Positions 3,363 through 29,338 of a stretch of DNA of 64,000 nucleotides are shown here, in pieces. Position 1 is the stretch's first letter. Every line of letters starts with the position of its first letter. The translations under genes were made by a program, and so were the position numbers. The DNA is taken from NCBI RefSeq assembly GCF_988242995.1, contig NZ_OZ547043.1; one strand, 5' to 3'. Under the pieces are notes generated by a model that saw nothing but the letters and a program-made list of their open reading frames with translations, ran no database searches and had not been told where the DNA came from.

Positions 3363-4364
3363 TCAGAGTTTAGCGAATTTTTCGAGGGTGCGAATAAGCT
3401 GCGTGACGAAGCCATATTCGTTATCATACCAGGCGACCGTTTTCACCAGCTGTAAATCGCCCACGGCGGTAATTTCGGTTTGCGTGGCATCAAACACCGA
3501 CCCGAAATGGCTGCCAATGATATCAGAAGAGACTATTTCTTCATCGGTATAACCAAATGACTCGTTATTGTTTGTCGCCTTTTTAAGCGCGTTGTTCACC
3601 TCTTCGGCAGTCACTTTTTTTTCGAGAATAGACACCAGTTCAGTCACCGAACCTGTTTTCACGGGTACGCGTTGCGCATGACCTTTCAGTTTGCCGCTCA
3701 GTTCCGGGATCACCAGACCAATGGCTTTTGCCGCACCTGTAGTGTGGGGAATGATATTTTCTGCCGCTGCACGTGAAGCGCGTAGATCTTTACCTCGCGG
3801 ACCATCCACCAGTGACTGAGTGCCGGTATAGGCATGAATGGTCGTCATCGTGCCGACTTCTATTCCGAAACTGTCGTGCAAGGCTTTGGCCATCGGTGCA
3901 AGACAGTTAGTGGTGCATGACGCCACGGAAACAATGGTGTCGTTGCCATCCAGAGTGTCGTCATTGACGTTATAAACGATAGTTTTCATTTCACCGGCAG
4001 GGGCGGAAATCAACACCTTCTTCGCACCAGCATCAAGATGCGCCTGCGATTTCTCGGCGGAGGTATAAAAGCCAGTACATTCGACAATAATTTCTGCCCC
4101 TTTCGCTTTCCACGGAATATTTTTAGCCTCTTTTTCGGCGTAAACCGCGATACTTTTCCCATCAACGATAAGTGAATCTTCCGTAAAATCAACGCTCCAG
4201 GGGAACGGTCCGTAGTTTGAATCATGTTTCAGCAGGTAGGCGAGAATTTTTGGGGAAGTGAGATCATTAATAGCGACAATGTCTATGTTGCTTTTGACTT
4301 CAAGTAATCGACGCAACACCAGTCGACCGATACGACCAAAACCGTTAATACCAACTTTACTCAT
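3363..4364 (-). CDS. gapC: glyceraldehyde-3-phosphate dehydrogenase GapC (intact reading frame)
   Basis: 333 aa uninterrupted ORF; N-terminal NAD-binding motif INGFGRIGR; active-site region SCTTNCLAP. Confidence 0.9.
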
Positions 4365-4552
4365 GGTCTTCTCCTGTCAGGAACGTTCGGATGAAAATTG
4401 ATCCTTTCCAGGCTTAGACCAGGATGGCGGGATGGGCAATCTACATTCTTGCCGTGAAACGTAACGTACTGAAAACGGGTGAACAATATTTAATGAAATT
4501 TTAAGAAAAGCCCGTTATGTTAACGGAAAATTATGTTAAAGCAGGAAATGTT

Positions 4553-5083
4553 ATGGGAAATAAATACTCAAGGTTACAAATCAGCATTCACTGGCTGGTC
4601 TTTATGCTGGTTATCGCAGCGTATTGCGCAATGGAGTTTCGGGGTTTCTTCCCACGTAGCGATCGGCCACTCATCAACATGATTCATGTTTCCTGTGGCA
4701 TATCAATTCTCGTGCTGATGGTCGTTCGTCTTTTGTTAAGGCTGAAATACCCAACCCCGCCGATTATACCTAAGCCAAAACCGATGATGACGGGACTGGC
4801 GCATTTGGGCCATTTGGTGATTTATCTCCTGTTTATTGCGCTGCCAGTGATTGGTTTGGTGATGATGTATAACCGGGGCAACCCGTGGTTTGCGTTTGGT
4901 TTGACGATGCCTTATGCATCAGAGGCCAATTTCGAACGGGTTGATAGCTTAAAGTCGTGGCATGAAATGCTGGCGAATCTGGGATATTTTGTCATCGGGT
5001 TGCACGCTGCGGCTGCACTGGCACACCACTATTTCTGGAAGGACAACACACTTCTACGCATGATGCCGCGTAAACGTTCCTGA
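4553..5083 (+). CDS. cybB: cytochrome b561
   Basis: ORF 4517..5083; likely native start at internal ATG (MGNKYSRLQISIHWLVF...) giving ~176 aa multi-TM protein. Confidence 0.85.
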   Translation: MGNKYSRLQISIHWLVFMLVIAAYCAMEFRGFFPRSDRPLINMIHVSCGISILVLMVVRLLLRLKYPTPPIIPKPKPMMTGLAHLGHLVIYLLFIALPVIGLVMMYNRGNPWFAFGLTMPYASEANFERVDSLKSWHEMLANLGYFVIGLHAAAALAHHYFWKDNTLLRMMPRKRS

Positions 5084-5093
5084 AGGATATTTA

Positions 5094-5157
5094 AAGAAAA
5101 CGCCTGTACTAAAACCGACCCGTGGTACAGGCGAAGAATACGGGTCTACATCGGAAG
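5094..5157 (-). ncRNA. rydC: RydC small regulatory RNA
   Basis: reverse complement reads CTTCCGATGTAGACCCGTATTCTTCGCCTGTACCACGGGTCGGTTTTAGTACAGGCGTTTTCTT, recognised as RydC; lies between cybB and ydcA. Confidence 0.75.
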
Positions 5158-5327
5158 CGCCTATTATATTTATTTGTATGACAAATAAAACCATAATCCT
5201 TATCCATACGTCCATCTGGCTTATCTTTAATCAATTCACCCGATCTTTGATCTCATCAACGGTATCAAAATAAACCAGCGTATAACGTTCAAATCGAACA
5301 TAAGATTCGATAAACCATGGAGGTTAT

Positions 5328-5501
5328 ATGAAAAAACTGGCACTCATCTTGGTTATAGGAGCGCTTGTTTCCTTTTTTGCCGATGCCGGGCGCAAACCCT
5401 GTTCTGGTTCGAAAGGGGGGATCTCACACTGTACGGCAGGCGGCAAATTTGTCTGTAATGATGGTTCTATTAGTGCATCGAAAAAAACATGCACTAACTG
5501 A
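5328..5501 (+). CDS. ydcA: small secreted/lipoprotein-like protein YdcA (57 aa)
   Basis: ATG at 5328 with GGAGG RBS; MKKLALILVIGALVSFFADAGRKPCSGSKGG...; below ORF-track size cutoff. Confidence 0.8.
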   Translation: MKKLALILVIGALVSFFADAGRKPCSGSKGGISHCTAGGKFVCNDGSISASKKTCTN

Positions 5502-14581: not shown

Positions 14582-15574
14582 ATGCAGAGCGATAAAGTGC
14601 TCAATTTGCCGGCAGGCTACTTTGGTATTGTGTTGGGGACGATAGGGATGGGATTTGCCTGGCGCTATGCCAGCCAGGTTTGGCAGGTCAGCCACTGGTT
14701 AGGGGATGGGCTGGTGATTCTGGCGATGATCATCTGGGGATTATTGACTAGCGCATTTATTACCCGACTCATACGCTTTCCGCATAGCGTGCTGGCGGAA
14801 GTTCGCCATCCAGTGCTGAGCAGTTTTGTGAGTTTGTTTCCGGCAACGACGATGCTGGTGGCGATTGGTTTTGTTCCGTGGTTTCGCCCACTGGCGGTGT
14901 GCCTGTTCAGTTTTGGTGTCGTGGTGCAACTGGCTTATGCCGCATGGCAAACTGCGGGATTATGGCGCGGATCTCACCCTGAAGAAGCTACCACGCCTGG
15001 ACTGTATCTGCCGACAGTTGCCAACAACTTTATCAGCGCAATGGCCTGTGGTGCGTTGGGCTACACCGACGCCGGTCTGGTGTTTTTAGGCGCAGGCGTT
15101 TTCTCATGGCTAAGCCTTGAACCGGTGATCTTGCAGCGTCTGCGCAGTTCGGGAGAATTACCCACGGCGCTGCGGACATCACTCGGCATTCAGCTCGCTC
15201 CTGCGCTGGTGGCCTGTAGTGCCTGGCTGAGCGTCAACGGCGGCGAGGGTGACACGCTGGCGAAAATGCTTTTCGGTTATGGACTGCTGCAACTGCTGTT
15301 TATGCTACGTCTGATGCCATGGTATCTCTCCCAGCCATTTAATGCTTCATTCTGGAGTTTCTCGTTCGGCGTATCTGCACTGGCAACCACCGGTTTGCAT
15401 CTGGGGAGTGGCAGCGATAATGGATTTTTTCATACGCTGGCGGTGCCGCTGTTTATCTTTACCAATTTTATTATTGCAATACTGCTCATCCGTACTTTTG
15501 CGCTTCTGATGCAGGGAAAATTGTTAGTCAGAACCGAGCGCGCCGTTTTAATGAAAGCAGAGGACAAAGAATGA
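14582..15574 (+). CDS. tehA: tellurite resistance / C4-dicarboxylate-transporter-family membrane protein TehA
   Basis: native start at internal Met ([15 protein letters not shown]..., 330 aa); multi-TM; overlaps tehB start. Confidence 0.9.
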
Positions 15575-16164
15575 TCATTCGTGATGAAAACTATTTTACT
15601 GATAAATATGAATTAACCCGCACACACTCTGAAGTGCTGGAAGCGGTGAAAGTGGTTAAACCGGGTAAAACGCTGGATCTGGGCTGTGGCAATGGTCGTA
15701 ACAGTCTTTACCTGGCAGCCAATGGTTATGATGTTGACGCATGGGATAAAAATGCCATGAGTATCGCCAACGTCGAGCGCATTAAGTCCATTGAAAATCT
15801 GGATAATTTACACACCCGGGTCGTTGATCTGAATAACCTCACATTTGATGGACAGTACGATTTTATTATTTCGACTGTGGTGCTGATGTTCCTTGAGGCT
15901 AAAACCATCCCAGGGCTGATTGCCAATATGCAACGTTGCACTAAACCTGGCGGTTACAACCTGATTGTGGCGGCGATGGATACCGCTGATTATCCATGTA
16001 CCGTCGGCTTCCCGTTTGCCTTCAAAGAGGGGGAATTACGTCGATATTACGAAGGCTGGGAGATGGTGAAATACAATGAAGACGTCGGCGAGCTGCACCG
16101 CACCGACGCCAACGGTAATCGTATTAAACTGCGTTTCGCCACGATGCTGGCACGTAAAAAATGA
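15571..16164 (+). CDS. tehB: tellurite methyltransferase TehB (SAM-dependent)
   Basis: 197 aa; SAM-binding motif [15 protein letters not shown]; ATGA start/stop overlap with tehA. Confidence 0.95.
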
Positions 16165-16466
16165 TCCGGTAAGAACAAAGCGCGTGAAAATTCCCCACGC
16201 TGAGATGGTTTACTGTTCTTCTTTTCGGTAAGCATATTTTTTATCGAAGGGATGTGAAATTAATCACAGTAGTCGAAGTTTTTTAGCCGCTTAACTTACT
16301 GAAATTTAACTACTGATGATTGACTTAGCCCCTTTTTCGGCATTGACTATGTCGTCTGAAAAGGGGCTAAAAAATTTATTTTCACCAACACTTTTTTTGC
16401 CACAACACGAAGCGGCGCTTTTTGCTATAACTTAGAAAGTAATATAATCATCTCAGGAAACTATTC

Positions 16467-17135
16467 ATGCGTACCACATCATTTGCGAAAGTTGCAGCTT
16501 TATGCGGCTTGTTGGCTCTGTCTGGTTGTGCCTCTAAAATCACCCAGCCAGATAAATATTCTGGTTTTTTAAACAATTACTCTGATTTAAAAGAAACAAC
16601 CTCAGCAACAGGTAAACCTGTTTTACGTTGGGTAGACCCGAGTTTTGATCAAAGCAAATATGACAGCATCGTCTGGAACCCAATCACTTATTATCCGGTA
16701 CCGAAACCTTCAACCCAGGTAGGGCAGAAAGTTCTGGATAAAATTTTGAACTATACCAACACCGAAATGAAAGAAGCGATAGCGCAGCGTAAACCACTGG
16801 TTACCAACGCTGGGCCGCGTAGTCTGATTTTCCGTGGGGCCATTACCGGTGTAGATACCAGCAAAGAAGGGCTGCAATTCTATGAAGTGGTTCCTGTTGC
16901 ATTAGTGGTTGCGGGGACGCAAATGGCTACAGGCCACCGTACCATGGATACTCGCCTCTATTTTGAAGGTGAGCTGATTGATGCAGCGACTAATAAACCG
17001 GTTATCAAAGTCGTTCGTCAGGGCGAAGGTAAAGACCTGAATAACGAAAGTACGCCAATGGCTTTCGAAAATATTAAACAAGTTATTGATGACATGGCGA
17101 CCGATGCCACCATGTTTGACGTTAACAAAAAGTAG
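16467..17135 (+). CDS. ydcL: lipoprotein YdcL (DUF3313)
   Basis: 222 aa; lipobox LALSGC after signal peptide. Confidence 0.9.
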   Translation: MRTTSFAKVAALCGLLALSGCASKITQPDKYSGFLNNYSDLKETTSATGKPVLRWVDPSFDQSKYDSIVWNPITYYPVPKPSTQVGQKVLDKILNYTNTEMKEAIAQRKPLVTNAGPRSLIFRGAITGVDTSKEGLQFYEVVPVALVVAGTQMATGHRTMDTRLYFEGELIDAATNKPVIKVVRQGEGKDLNNESTPMAFENIKQVIDDMATDATMFDVNKK

Positions 17136-17143
17136 TTCCAGAC

Positions 17144-17170
17144 GCGCCATCGTTAGATGGCGCTTTTTAT
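17144..17170. terminator. bidirectional rho-independent terminator between ydcL and ydcO
   Basis: hairpin GCGCCATC-GTTA-GATGGCGC followed by TTTTTATTA. Confidence 0.65.
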
Positions 17171-18342
17171 TATCGGTTTCTGTTAGCGATTAAATTCAAC
17201 ACCACGTAACAAACGCCTCCGGCAATTAATCCCCAAAACGCAGAACCAATCCCGACCAGCGTCAATCCACTTGCCGTTACCAGAAATGCCACCACCGCCG
17301 CGTCGCGCTCACGCTCATTATGCAGCGCCTGATACAAACTGCCGCCAATGGTACTCAACAGCGCCAGACCTGCCAGCATCTGGATCCAACTTACGGGCAG
17401 GGCAGCCATCATCCCGGTAATGGCACTACCAAACAGACCTGCGAGCAAATAGAAAATGCCTGCAACGGCAGCGGCCAGCCAACGTTGATCTTTATCCGGA
17501 TGCGCTTCCGGGCTTTGGCAAATAGCCGCGGTGATTGCCGCAATACCGACGGAATAAACGCCGAAAGGGGAAAAAACCAGTGCCAGCAATCCAGTAAATA
17601 CAATTAATGGCGAAACAGGAGCTGAATATCCGGCGGCTTTCATTGCTGCGATACCCGGTGCGTTTTGCGATGCCATCGTCACCAGAAAAAGGGGGAGTGC
17701 AACGCTCAGGCTGTGAGCAAACGAAAAATCAGGGCTAATATAAGTGGGGAGAACGGGTTTAAAGACAACATCAGTTGTGACAACGTCACCTTGCGCGATA
17801 ACGATCACGACCCCAATAATCATCGCGGCAATTACCGCATAGCGCGGCGCAACGGCCTTGGTTGCCAGCCATACCAGCAACATACCTCCACACAACGTAG
17901 ATTGACCATCCAGACTGGCAAACGCCTGTAAACCAAAGCGTAATAAAATCCCGGCAAGCATTGCCGCCGCAAGCGAGTGCGGAATAATGCGCATCAGACG
18001 AGCAAAGAGTCCCGTTATGCCGCAGAGGACTATTAACGCGTTGGTGACAATAAAAACGCCGATGGCTTCGTTAAGTGTTAGTCCCTGTAATCCGGTGACC
18101 AACAAAGCCGCGCCAGGCGTTGACCATGCGGTGAGAACAGGTACGCGATACCATAATGTCAGAGTCAGCGTACTGACGCCCATTGCCAGCCCCAGCGCCG
18201 TCATCCAGCCAGAGATTTGTGTAGTGGTGGCTCCGGCGACAATCGCTGCTTGCCAGATTATTGCCGCTGAACTGGCGTAGCCAATTAATACCGCCAGAAA
18301 CCCCGCCAGTAGCGTGGGTGGAGGAATAGAAAACAGACGCAT
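17170..18342 (-). CDS. ydcO: BenE-family membrane transporter YdcO
   Basis: native start at internal Met (MRLFSIPPPTLLAGFLAVLIGY..., 391 aa); polytopic membrane protein. Confidence 0.85.
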   Translation of the reverse strand: MRLFSIPPPTLLAGFLAVLIGYASSAAIIWQAAIVAGATTTQISGWMTALGLAMGVSTLTLTLWYRVPVLTAWSTPGAALLVTGLQGLTLNEAIGVFIVTNALIVLCGITGLFARLMRIIPHSLAAAMLAGILLRFGLQAFASLDGQSTLCGGMLLVWLATKAVAPRYAVIAAMIIGVVIVIAQGDVVTTDVVFKPVLPTYISPDFSFAHSLSVALPLFLVTMASQNAPGIAAMKAAGYSAPVSPLIVFTGLLALVFSPFGVYSVGIAAITAAICQSPEAHPDKDQRWLAAAVAGIFYLLAGLFGSAITGMMAALPVSWIQMLAGLALLSTIGGSLYQALHNERERDAAVVAFLVTASGLTLVGIGSAFWGLIAGGVCYVVLNLIANRNR

Positions 18343-18433
18343 AGTCACCTCGTGCGTTATAACGTACAGGTACCGTAGCATTTGTCCGTTATAACGCACA
18401 AGTGATAAACTTCCGTTTTGCCGGAGGAGTCGC

Positions 18434-18970
18434 ATGGAAAATCTCGCTCGCTTTTTATCCACCACACTTAAACAACTACGTCAGCATCGCGGCTGGAGTC
18501 TTTCGCGACTGGCAGAAGCGACGGGCGTTTCTAAAGCGATGTTAGGGCAGATTGAGCGTAATGAATCCAGCCCGACGGTCGCGACATTATGGAAAATTGC
18601 CACCGGGTTGAACGTGCCATTTTCAACATTTATTTCTCCGCCGCAGTCCGCTACGCCTTCAGTTTATGATCCACAACGGCAGGCGATGGTGATCACTTCG
18701 CTGTTTCCTTATGATCCACAACTCTGCTTTGAACACTTCTCGATTCAGATGGCACCTGGTGCAATAAGTGAATCGACGCCCCATGAGAAGGGAGTAATCG
18801 AACATGTTGTCGTCATTGATGGGCAACTTGATCTGTGCGTTGATGGTGAATGGCAGAGCCTTAATTGTGGAAAAGGCGCTCGATTTGCTGCAGACGTTAC
18901 GCATGTCTATCGTAATGGTGGGGAGCAAATCGTACATTTTCATTCCCTCATCCATTACCCGCGCAGTTAA
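18434..18970 (+). CDS. ydcN: XRE-family HTH plus cupin-domain transcriptional regulator YdcN
   Basis: 178 aa; N-terminal HTH (LRQHRGWSLSRLAEATGVSKAMLGQIERNESSPT), C-terminal cupin. Confidence 0.9.
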   Translation: MENLARFLSTTLKQLRQHRGWSLSRLAEATGVSKAMLGQIERNESSPTVATLWKIATGLNVPFSTFISPPQSATPSVYDPQRQAMVITSLFPYDPQLCFEHFSIQMAPGAISESTPHEKGVIEHVVVIDGQLDLCVDGEWQSLNCGKGARFAADVTHVYRNGGEQIVHFHSLIHYPRS

Positions 18971-19042: not shown

Positions 19043-21004
19043 GTGACCGTATCTTCTCATCGTCTTGAACTGTTAAGTCCGGCACGCGATGCCGCCATTG
19101 CCCGCGAAGCTATTTTGCACGGTGCCGATGCTGTTTATATCGGCGGCCCTGGTTTTGGTGCCCGTCATAATGCCAGTAATAGCCTGAAAGATATTGCCGA
19201 ACTGGTGCCATTTGCCCATCGTTATGGTGCAAAAATTTTCGTCACGCTTAACACCATTTTGCATGATGATGAGCTGGAACCTGCGCAACGGCTGATTACC
19301 GACCTCTACCAGACCGGCGTCGACGCGCTGATTGTTCAGGATATGGGGATTCTGGAACTTGATATTCCGCCGATTGAACTGCACGCCAGTACGCAGTGCG
19401 ACATTCGTACAGTAGAAAAAGCGAAGTTCCTCTCTGATGTTGGCTTCACGCAGATTGTGCTGGCGCGAGAGCTGAATCTTGAGCAGATCCGCGCGATTCA
19501 CCAGGCCACGGACGCGACCATTGAATTCTTTATTCATGGCGCACTGTGCGTGGCCTATTCGGGTCAGTGCTACATTTCTCATGCGCAAACAGGGCGTAGC
19601 GCCAACCGTGGCGATTGCTCGCAGGCGTGCCGTTTGCCATACACATTGAAAGACGATCAGGGGCGGGTGGTTTCCTATGAAAAACATCTGCTGTCGATGA
19701 AAGATAACGATCAGACTGCCAACCTCGGCGCGCTGATTGATGCTGGCGTACGCTCCTTCAAGATTGAAGGGCGTTACAAAGATATGAGCTACGTGAAGAA
19801 TATCACCGCCCATTATCGCCAGATGCTGGATGCCATTATTGAAGAACGTGGCGATCTGACGCGTACTTCATCAGGTCGTACTGAACATTTCTTTGTTCCA
19901 TCGACGGAAAAGACTTTCCACCGTGGTAGCACAGATTATTTTGTGAATGCCCGTAAAGGCGATATTGGCGCGTTCGATTCGCCGAAATTTATCGGCCTGC
20001 CGGTGGGTGAAGTATTGAAAGTGGCGAAAGATCATCTCGATGTTGCCGTCACCGAACCACTGGCAAATGGCGATGGCCTGAACGTGATGATTAAACGTGA
20101 AGTCGTCGGCTTTCGTGCCAATACGGTCGAGAAAACCGGAGAAAATCAGTACCGCGTCTGGCCCAATGAAATGCCAGCAGAGTTGCACAAAATTCGCCCG
20201 CATCACCCACTAAATCGTAATCTTGATCATAACTGGCAGCAGGCACTGACAAAAACATCCAGCGAACGTCGGGTGGCGGTAGATATTGAACTGGGCGGCT
20301 GGCAGGAACAACTGATTCTGACCCTCACCAGTGAAGAGGGTGTCAGCATCACGCATACGCTGGACGGGCATTTCGACGAAGCCAATAACGCCGAAAAAGC
20401 AATGAACAATCTAAAGGATGGTCTGGCAAAACTGGGGCAAACCCTCTATTACGCCCGCGATGTGCAAATTAATTTGCCCGGGGCGCTGTTTGTACCAAAC
20501 AGTCTGTTAAACCAGTTCCGCCGTGAAGCCGCCGACATGCTGGATGCTGCACGTCTTGCCGGTTACCAGCGGGGCAGCCGTAAACCGGTTGCTGATCCTG
20601 CGCCGGTTTATCCGCAAACGCATCTGAGTTTCCTCGCGAACGTATACAACCAGAAAGCGCGTGAATTTTATCATCGCTACGGTGTGCAGCTGATTGACGC
20701 GGCGTATGAGGCACATGAAGAGAAGGGCGAAGTCCCGGTGATGATCACTAAGCATTGTCTGCGCTTTGCCTTCAATCTGTGCCCGAAACAGGCGAAAGGC
20801 AATATCAAAAGCTGGAAGGCGACGCCAATGCAACTGGTTAACGGCGATGAAGTATTAACGCTAAAGTTCGATTGTCGCCCATGTGAGATGCACGTCATCG
20901 GCAAAATTAAAAATCACATTCTGAAAATGCCGTTACCGGGAAGTGTTGTCGCCTCCGTAAGTCCGGATGAGCTGCTGAAAACATTGCCGAAGCGAAAAGG
21001 GTAA
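19043..21004 (+). CDS. ydcP: U32-family peptidase-like protein YdcP (RlhA-like rRNA hydroxylation factor)
   Basis: ORF track 19001..21004 (667 aa); U32 family signature around GxxxxGxRxN and Cys cluster; start may be GTG at 19043 (653 aa) or ATG at 19001. Confidence 0.85.
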   Translation: MTVSSHRLELLSPARDAAIAREAILHGADAVYIGGPGFGARHNASNSLKDIAELVPFAHRYGAKIFVTLNTILHDDELEPAQRLITDLYQTGVDALIVQDMGILELDIPPIELHASTQCDIRTVEKAKFLSDVGFTQIVLARELNLEQIRAIHQATDATIEFFIHGALCVAYSGQCYISHAQTGRSANRGDCSQACRLPYTLKDDQGRVVSYEKHLLSMKDNDQTANLGALIDAGVRSFKIEGRYKDMSYVKNITAHYRQMLDAIIEERGDLTRTSSGRTEHFFVPSTEKTFHRGSTDYFVNARKGDIGAFDSPKFIGLPVGEVLKVAKDHLDVAVTEPLANGDGLNVMIKREVVGFRANTVEKTGENQYRVWPNEMPAELHKIRPHHPLNRNLDHNWQQALTKTSSERRVAVDIELGGWQEQLILTLTSEEGVSITHTLDGHFDEANNAEKAMNNLKDGLAKLGQTLYYARDVQINLPGALFVPNSLLNQFRREAADMLDAARLAGYQRGSRKPVADPAPVYPQTHLSFLANVYNQKAREFYHRYGVQLIDAAYEAHEEKGEVPVMITKHCLRFAFNLCPKQAKGNIKSWKATPMQLVNGDEVLTLKFDCRPCEMHVIGKIKNHILKMPLPGSVVASVSPDELLKTLPKRKG

Positions 21005-21095: not shown

Positions 21096-21326
21096 TCAAC
21101 GTTGTCCCGCTTCTGGTTTGCGCGATTTTTGCCAGTAAAAATGCTCGCGCAAACCTTCCGCCGACTCTTCCGCCACAGCACGCAATTCATCGCTGTCCGC
21201 TTCATGACGCAGTTGATGATCCACATTCTTTACCCACATAAATTCATGTCCTTTGTGCCCTGCCATGAGTTGTCCTGAGAACAGCGCACACGTTAATAAG
21301 ACAACCGATAACGCCTTCGTAAACAT
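21096..21326 (-). CDS. yncJ: DUF2554 secreted protein YncJ
   Basis: 76 aa with signal peptide MFTKALSVVLLTCALFSGQLMA. Confidence 0.85.
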   Translation of the reverse strand: MFTKALSVVLLTCALFSGQLMAGHKGHEFMWVKNVDHQLRHEADSDELRAVAEESAEGLREHFYWQKSRKPEAGQR

Positions 21327-27839: not shown

Positions 27840-29264
27840 ATGCAACATAAGTTACTGATTAACGGAGAACTGGTTAGCGGCGAAGGGGAAAAACAGCCTG
27901 TCTATAATCCGGCAACGGGGGACGTTTTACTGGAGATTGCCGAGGCATCCGCAGAGCAGGTCGATGCTGCTGTGCGCGCGGCAGATGCAGCATTTGCCGA
28001 ATGGGGGCAAACCACGCCGAAAGTGCGTGCGGAATGTCTGCTGAAACTGGCTGATGTTATCGAAGAAAATGGTCAGGTTTTTGCCGAACTGGAGTCCCGT
28101 AATTGTGGCAAACCGCTGCATAGTGCGTTCAATGATGAAATCCCGGCGATTGTCGATGTTTTTCGCTTTTTCGCTGGTGCGGCGCGCTGTCTGAATGGTC
28201 TGGCGGCAGGTGAATATCTTGAAGGTCATACTTCGATGATCCGTCGCGATCCGTTGGGGGTCGTGGCTTCGATCGCACCGTGGAATTATCCGCTGATGAT
28301 GGCCGCGTGGAAACTGGCTCCGGCGCTGGCGGCAGGGAACTGTGTAGTGCTTAAACCATCAGAAATTACCCCGCTGACCGCGTTGAAGTTGGCAGAGCTG
28401 GCGAAAGATATCTTCCCGGCAGGCGTGATTAACGTACTGTTTGGCAGAGGCAAAACGGTGGGCGATCCGCTGACCGGTCATCCCAAAGTGCGGATGGTGT
28501 CGCTGACGGGCTCTATCGCCACCGGCGAGCACATCATCAGCCATACCGCGCCGTCCATAAAGCGTACTCATATGGAACTTGGTGGCAAAGCGCCAGTGAT
28601 AGTTTTTGATGATGCGGATATTGAAGCGGTGGTCGAAGGTGTACGTACTTTTGGCTATTACAATGCCGGACAGGATTGTACAGCGGCTTGTCGGATCTAT
28701 GCGCAAAAAGGCATTTACGATACGCTGGTGGAAAAACTTGGTGCTGCAGTGGCAACGTTAAAATCGGGTGCGCCGGATGACGACTCTACGGAGCTTGGAC
28801 CTTTAAGTTCGCTGGCGCATCTCGAACGCGTCAGCAAGGCGGTAGAAGAGGCGAAAGCGACAGGGCACATCAAAGTGATCACTGGCGGTGAAAAGCGCAA
28901 GGGTAATGGCTATTACTATGCGCCGACGCTACTGGCTGGCGCATTACAGGACGATGCCATCGTGCAAAAAGAGGTATTTGGTCCAGTAGTGAGTGTTACG
29001 CTCTTCGACAATGAAGAACAGGTGGTAAACTGGGCAAATGACAGCCAGTATGGACTTGCATCCTCGGTATGGACGAAAGATGTGGGCAGGGCGCATCGCG
29101 TCAGCGCGCGGCTGCAATATGGTTGTACCTGGGTCAATACCCATTTCATGCTGGTAAGTGAAATGCCGCACGGTGGGCAGAAACTTTCTGGTTACGGCAA
29201 GGATATGTCACTTTATGGGCTGGAGGATTACACCGTCGTCCGCCACGTCATGGTTAAACATTAA
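27840..29264 (+). CDS. patD: gamma-aminobutyraldehyde dehydrogenase
   Basis: 474 aa aldehyde dehydrogenase (ELGGKAP, Cys active-site region); recognised as PatD/YdcW. Confidence 0.95.
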
Positions 29265-29303: not shown

Positions 29304-29338
29304 CGTACTGTCAGAGCACTGATTTCTCTGACAGTACG
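29304..29338. terminator. bidirectional terminator between patD and yncL
   Basis: 13-bp inverted repeat CGTACTGTCAGAG...CTCTGACAGTACG. Confidence 0.6.

Follow-up and report, generated by a model that had tools for sequence, protein, structure and literature searches.

Stem-loops at the 3' ends of bacterial genes

REP/BIME palindromes stabilise mRNA between co-directional genes, for example at malE-malF. Canonical intrinsic terminators combine a G+C-rich stem-loop on the transcribed strand, closed by a loop of 3-8 nt, with a U-tract of approximately 7-8 nt that begins 0-2 nt after the stem. For E. coli, it has also been described that Rho-dependent transcripts end just past stable stem-loops that lack U-rich tails (Dar and Sorek, PMC6061677). 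These stem-loops protect against PNPase and RNase II, the sequence downstream of them is enriched in C over G, and it has been proposed that they and intrinsic terminators turn into one another as U residues are gained or lost (PMC6061677).

The hairpin considered here lies in the window, i.e. the whole 64-kb stretch of DNA that was analysed, which derives from E. coli. The genes tehA (ending at 15574), tehB (15571-16164) and ydcL (16467-17135), the last coding for a DUF3313 lipoprotein, are all located on the plus strand and match b1429-b1431 of K-12. The spacer between tehB, the last of the tehAB tellurite-resistance genes, and ydcL comprises 302 nt and contains no annotated feature in K-12 or in the other sampled RefSeq genomes. 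An initial annotation had reported a hairpin approximately 160 bp downstream of tehB and 100 bp upstream of ydcL. Both the gene context and the distances are borne out: 160 nt separate the end of the tehB stop codon (16164) from the stem, and the ydcL ATG at 16467 lies 96 nt 3' of it. The hairpin marks the 3' end of the tehAB unit and sets it apart from ydcL as the downstream unit. The corresponding K-12 coordinates are approximately 1502315-1502360. On the far side of ydcL, K-12 carries IS609 between ydcL and ydcO (K-12 locus 3662-5409 versus 17136-17170 in the window), while the window strain has no insertion there; its ydcL is directly followed by a canonical terminator (17144-17163) and then by a minus-strand ORF that starts at 17170.

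Structure of the tehB-ydcL hairpin

The hairpin is built on a perfect inverted repeat of 12 bp, TTAGCCCCTTTT (16325-16336) and AAAAGGGGCTAA (16359-16370), with 22 nt between the arms. It had initially been described as an 11-bp perfect stem at 16323-16366 with a loop of approximately 22 nt. The perfect pairing and the distance between the arms stand, but both the sequence and a repeat finder give 12 bp, the span had been set about 3 nt too far to the left (16325-16370 is the actual extent) and the loop itself folds. In the plus-strand RNA, the 5' arm of the lower stem, TTAGCCCCTTTTT (16325-16337), faces the 3' arm GAAAAGGGGCTAA (16358-16370), the 12 perfect pairs being extended by a wobble between U16337 and G16358. 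Within the presumed loop, an apical stem-loop (16338-16354) is formed by six base pairs between CGGCAT (16338-16343) and ATGTCG (16349-16354) around a 5-nt loop, TGACT, and a 3-nt bulge, TCT (16355-16357), is located between the apical and lower stems. The A/T-rich tract that had been noted after the stem is indeed present as the tail AAAATTTATTTT (16371-16382), in which an A-run is followed by a T-rich stretch.

A folding-energy calculation, which the initial annotation had proposed as a check, yields 19 pairs for the plus-strand RNA at -24.4 to -25.3 kcal/mol (z -6.3 to -7.0), and none of 200 shuffles folds as well. For the minus strand, the predicted fold is less stable (-18.2 kcal/mol, z -4.2). 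The window contains three perfect inverted repeats with a stem of 12 bp or more and a loop of 3-40 nt, versus 0.1 per dinucleotide shuffle, i.e. repeats this long occur about 30-fold above chance, and the exact arm pattern has a single occurrence in the window. The existence of the inverted repeat and of the RNA hairpin is confirmed by these analyses.

Lowering the limit to perfect repeats of at least 11 bp gives four in the window, the studied hairpin among them. The statement that it is larger than the other terminators in the window holds roughly, but two of these repeats have 13 bp. One of the two, GTGCGTTATAACG-N22-CGTTATAACGCAC at 18352-18399, matches the studied hairpin in its 22-nt spacing. 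It is situated at the start of a minus-strand ydcO-like ORF (17170-18465) and just 5' of a plus-strand ORF (18434-18970) whose product starts with a helix-turn-helix-like sequence, and may be an operator. The other (29304-29338) has a 9-nt loop and lies 40 nt past an ORF ending at 29264, and an 11-bp repeat (21115-21155) is found 110 nt past an ORF ending at 21004. A T-run follows neither of these two, which may be additional gene-end hairpins of the type that lacks a U-tract.

Conservation and compensatory evolution of the stem

Using sensitive blastn searches, the hairpin is detected in 5,406 of 5,426 complete E. coli genomes (99.6%), with a median of one copy per genome and always within the tehB-ydcL spacer in the hits examined. 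Like the REP/BIME palindromes, it is an intergenic hairpin between same-strand genes and could shield the upstream message from 3' exonucleases; it differs in being single-copy in E. coli genomes and in having no REP-like repeated consensus, and membership in this repeat family was rejected on the basis of the median of one place per genome. A permissive Rfam scan of 15900-16800 returned only sub-threshold noise.

Variants of the hairpin within E. coli are few. In K-12, a G replaces A16369, so that a U-A pair becomes U·G, in EDL933 the wobble position 16337 is altered and the tail contains one extra A, and one E. coli strain has lost the innermost A-U pair. The GCCCCTTT/AAAGGGGC core is intact in all Escherichia lineages examined except one (L009), in which GCTCC results in a G·U wobble. 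A single E. coli assembly (FCI1, NZ_CM172811.1; L004) shows a 36-bp tandem-like duplication inside the hairpin, aligned to 16333-16350, in which GCCCCTTTTTCGGCA...TTGACTATGTC is repeated; this may reflect either genuine slippage at the palindrome or an error of the assembly.

For comparison of the spacer beyond E. coli, a YdcL search was used to collect 80 Enterobacteriaceae loci. The gene tehB is located directly 5' of ydcL in Escherichia, Citrobacter, Salmonella arizonae and diarizonae, Kluyvera, Trabulsiella, Yokenella and others, and a homologous hairpin follows tehB in other Escherichia, in Citrobacter and in Salmonella. A MAFFT alignment of 27 sequences from these three genera places the hairpins in register. 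The Salmonella hairpin has the same apical CGGCA/TGTCG pairs as that of E. coli, and E. coli shares a GATGATTG motif just 5' of the hairpin with two Citrobacter species. RNAalifold identifies 11 consensus pairs in this alignment, 9 of which show compensatory change on both sides, although these represent few independent events because much of the covariation stems from the split between Escherichia and Citrobacter/Salmonella. Paired cells amount to 90.6%, versus 32-57% if the partners are slid by 1-3 columns, and none of 500 shuffles reaches the observed pairing or covariation score.

The alignment also reveals which strand is maintained. Over the full helix, 41 G·U cells are found versus 15 A·C cells, the latter being those that would read as G·U on the opposite strand. 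In 22 of the 27 sequences, the plus-strand RNA has the greater stability, with a mean difference of 4.25 kcal/mol, and the alifold consensus energy is -10.25 for the plus strand and -5.94 for the minus strand. The G·U bias and the folding energies indicate selection on an RNA in the tehB/ydcL sense rather than on a DNA palindrome. Compensatory evolution has thus preserved the hairpin in Escherichia, Citrobacter and Salmonella, with the plus strand under selection.

Across genera, the strongest local hairpin mostly ends 95-108 nt (range 75-127) before the ydcL ATG and, in most of them, just 5' of conserved blocks of the putative ydcL promoter. In the window, this promoter region would extend from 16392 to 16431 on the plus strand, immediately 3' of the hairpin, and includes the block TTTTTTTGCCACAAC (16392-16406) and an extended -10-like element, TGCTATAAC (16423-16431). 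Every genus examined carries the blocks TTTTTTGYCACAAC and then TTTTGCTATAAC approximately 100 nt upstream of ydcL. Conservation across the approximately 80 Enterobacteriaceae loci covers 16392-16435, with TTTTTTGYCACAAC (a GYCACAAC block) and the sigma-S promoter-like extended -10 TTTTGCTATAACTTA. A SELEX peak of the RpoS holoenzyme has been located in the tehB>ydcL spacer (PMC5493296).

The genera differ in what follows the hairpin. In Leclercia, Silvania, Yokenella, several Enterobacter and others, a canonical terminator with a U-run is present, with tail scores of approximately 2-5 for most, whereas the hairpins of Escherichia, Citrobacter, Salmonella and Kluyvera have no adjacent U-run. 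Since the stem is followed by A-rich sequence instead of U's in the Citrobacter and Salmonella homologues as well, the lack of a U-tract is itself conserved, and it is the sole unusual feature of the hairpin.

A proposed protective stem-loop at the tehAB 3' end

The explanation that we favour, with moderate confidence, is that the hairpin acts as a 3' end-defining, exonuclease-blocking stem-loop for the tehAB mRNA. The element would then be a sense-strand stem-loop in the tehAB 3' untranslated region that borders the ydcL promoter region. RNA polymerase would stop beyond it, through Rho or at a more distal site, and a low level of termination may depend on the hairpin itself. The 3'-to-5' exonucleases PNPase and RNase II would then trim the transcript back to the stem-loop, so that the tehAB message retains a stable 3' end. 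Should transcription continue into ydcL, the hairpin would be expected to stabilise the upstream tehAB segment of the co-transcript.

The gene-end position, the conserved absence of the U-tract and the match to the class of Dar and Sorek together argue for this protective role. As in that class, a stable sense-strand stem-loop with terminator-like energy is positioned just 3' of a gene, with neither a U-rich tail behind it nor an A-tract upstream; it differs in being longer than the typical terminator-like stem (46 nt, with 19 pairs and a bulge). The occurrence of hairpins with and without a U-tract at one site across genera also fits the proposed interconversion (PMC6061677). The base composition weighs less: the 60 nt downstream of the hairpin contain 14 C and 7 G, but this is weak evidence because the region is the homologous ydcL promoter, shared with loci that carry a canonical terminator and show the same bias.

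Counting against the model, only 96 nt lie between the hairpin and the ydcL start, which would leave little untranslated RNA for Rho loading. Published transcript-end data were also consulted: the Term-seq 3'-end tables of PMC7815308 contain no entry in the tehB-ydcL spacer, its bicyclomycin (Rho-inhibition) table lists none there either, the nearest plus-strand sites being 1499587 and 1503424, and TERMITe (PMC12207403) gave no match for a 3' end here. Expression of tehAB may be too weak, and the tables may be incomplete.

Alternative explanations

Direct termination by the hairpin is an unlikely alternative. Here, the hairpin would serve as a working Rho-independent tehAB terminator despite its odd tail, and hairpin and nearby TTTATTTT would stop the polymerase directly. 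The stem has what such a terminator requires, namely a strong GCCCC/GGGGC base on the plus strand at -24.4 kcal/mol (z -7.0), and it shares with canonical intrinsic terminators the G+C-rich transcribed-strand stem-loop at the end of a unit, the relatives having theirs at a similar distance from ydcL. In addition, the T-rich stretch begins 5 nt after the stem, and inefficient intrinsic terminators with reduced U content exist (PMC6061677). The tail, however, has no adjacent U-tract because an A-run lies between the stem and the T-rich stretch, and its score is 0.29, compared to approximately 2-5 for most canonical examples. Here, AAAA precedes TTTATTTT, and the apical region is far larger than a loop of 3-8 nt. 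With four A's before any T, the hairpin is not a canonical intrinsic terminator; a terminator consensus scan does not call it, the missing U-tract is conserved in the Citrobacter and Salmonella homologues, and the Term-seq tables (PMC7815308) list no 3' end in the spacer. The initial proposal of a terminator can therefore be kept in spirit, as a sense-strand gene-end structure at a site where many other genera carry a canonical terminator, but not in the sense of a canonical intrinsic terminator, as the U-tract is missing.

A second possibility, which we consider quite improbable, is that the hairpin is the terminator or attenuator of a short transcript born within the spacer, with a candidate CRP-dependent promoter and either an sRNA or a regulated long ydcL leader as the product. 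The candidate promoter would lie in a segment specific to Escherichia. Spacers are approximately 290-300 nt long in most Escherichia and approximately 140-180 nt in most other genera, and the extra 130 nt or so in Escherichia (16165-16297) are located between the tehB stop codon and the hairpin. The extra segment is predicted to be highly structured, and the whole spacer folds with a z of -5.5 and several additional hairpins; Escherichia sp. MOD1-EC7003 (L006) has lost the segment. It holds a perfect match to the CRP consensus, TGTGA-AATTAA-TCACA (16253-16268), 57 nt 5' of the hairpin, which is the only perfect one in the window. Its half-sites do not vary among E. coli, two cryptic-clade genomes, strain E69 and E. 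albertii, while the site is missing from the spacers of all other genera compared. Escherichia may thus have gained a structured insert of approximately 130 nt with a CRP site, between tehB and an older hairpin. One could propose that cAMP-CRP drives a transcript starting there, but we regard this scenario as very unlikely. If it were true, the CRP-driven transcript would either end at the hairpin, as a short Escherichia-specific RNA, or read through as a long regulated ydcL leader, and the hairpin would then terminate conditionally and couple ydcL to the carbon status.

No clear partner promoter was found for the CRP consensus site, and no literature mention of it either. The plus-strand scan for promoter-like sites was empty from the CRP site to the hairpin and in the spacer as a whole, and two TTGACT boxes in or before the hairpin have no usable -10 partner. 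In Citrobacter and Salmonella, where no CRP site accompanies it, the homologous hairpin lies only 20-45 nt after the tehB stop codon. On the minus strand, a promoter-like site, TTCACA-16-TATGCT (16258-16231), overlaps a CRP half-site, and approximately 25 nt further a terminator-like hairpin, GCGTGGGGAATTTTCACGC plus GCTTTGTTCT, is found at 16200-16182; the two could delimit a tiny antisense RNA beside the tehB 3' end.

The two products envisaged for such a transcript can be considered separately. An independent sRNA gene, as had been suggested initially, is argued against by the absence of a plus-strand promoter-like site in the spacer, of an Rfam match, of a listed Term-seq 3' end and of the U-tail typical of sRNA terminators, together with the short distance between tehB and the hairpin in Citrobacter and Salmonella, and was rejected. 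The gene SF1779 of Shigella flexneri is presumably the homologue of ydcL. A computational prediction of 2016 placed an sRNA, Ssr15, in the SF1779/tehB spacer of Shigella flexneri 2a 301 (PMC4782007); it covers a region, 297 nt long, that appears to be the one in which the hairpin lies. Ssr15 was, however, predicted on the strand opposite to tehB, whereas the strand bias of the hairpin favours the tehB sense, and it is not marked as validated by RT-PCR (PMC4782007). This unvalidated prediction is all that a literature search for ydcL or tehB together with CRP or sRNA returned.

An attenuator, the other product suggested initially, requires an alternative pairing. In the window strain, 16276-16292 can form a helix with 16361-16377 over 17 nt with 88% complementarity. 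It is the only alternative found and it is not conserved: most E. coli have GCAGC instead of GCCGC, and other Escherichia carry ATCGAC and similar sequences. As the hairpin also lies upstream of the putative -10 element (16423-16431) of ydcL, and no Rfam match was obtained, an attenuator or riboswitch-like leader was rejected. A 39-aa ORF that overlaps the hairpin (16316-16435) was discarded as well, since its frame is shifted by the additional A of EDL933 and, in E. albertii, by a deletion; no Shine-Dalgarno sequence is found 5' of its ATG.

Very little probability is likewise assigned to a role of the element as DNA, in which the palindrome would be a protein-binding site or bend at roughly -113 to -68 from the putative ydcL start. 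Several features would suit such a site: a perfect palindrome adjoins a conserved promoter region, CATTGACTAT in the loop does not vary within Escherichia and ATTGACT is present twice. Moreover, ydcL is down in a rob deletion and its expression responds to Rob and stress (PMC7537768). Inspection by eye of the sequence near the hairpin revealed no convincing marbox for Rob/MarA/SoxS. The comparative data point in the other direction. The arm sequences are wholly different in Escherichia and Citrobacter while pairing is kept, which is expected of an RNA structure and not of a protein recognition sequence. Likewise, a DNA site should have no strand bias, but G·U exceeds A·C on the plus strand by 41 to 15, and the hairpin that occupies this spot in many other genera is an unrelated terminator.

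Finally, a chance palindrome or a functionless relic of an old terminator, for which one could cite the lack of a U-tract, the absence of Term-seq or bicyclomycin signals at the site in the tables of PMC7815308 and the 36-bp duplication within the hairpin of one E. coli assembly, is extremely improbable for a repeat about 30-fold above chance that is kept in 99.6% of complete E. coli genomes and whose pairing is maintained through compensatory changes in three genera.

Implications for the tehAB unit

Taken together, the tehB-ydcL hairpin is a real, conserved and previously unannotated gene-end RNA hairpin of a known kind and with a probably ordinary function. The tehAB unit gains a defined and conserved 3' structure, which is of little importance beyond annotation. 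For the Enterobacteriaceae, the locus shows in a clean comparison how gene-end hairpins at a single position come with a U-tract in some genera and lack it in others, and it might serve as a small test case for the insulation of tehAB from the stress-responsive ydcL promoter.
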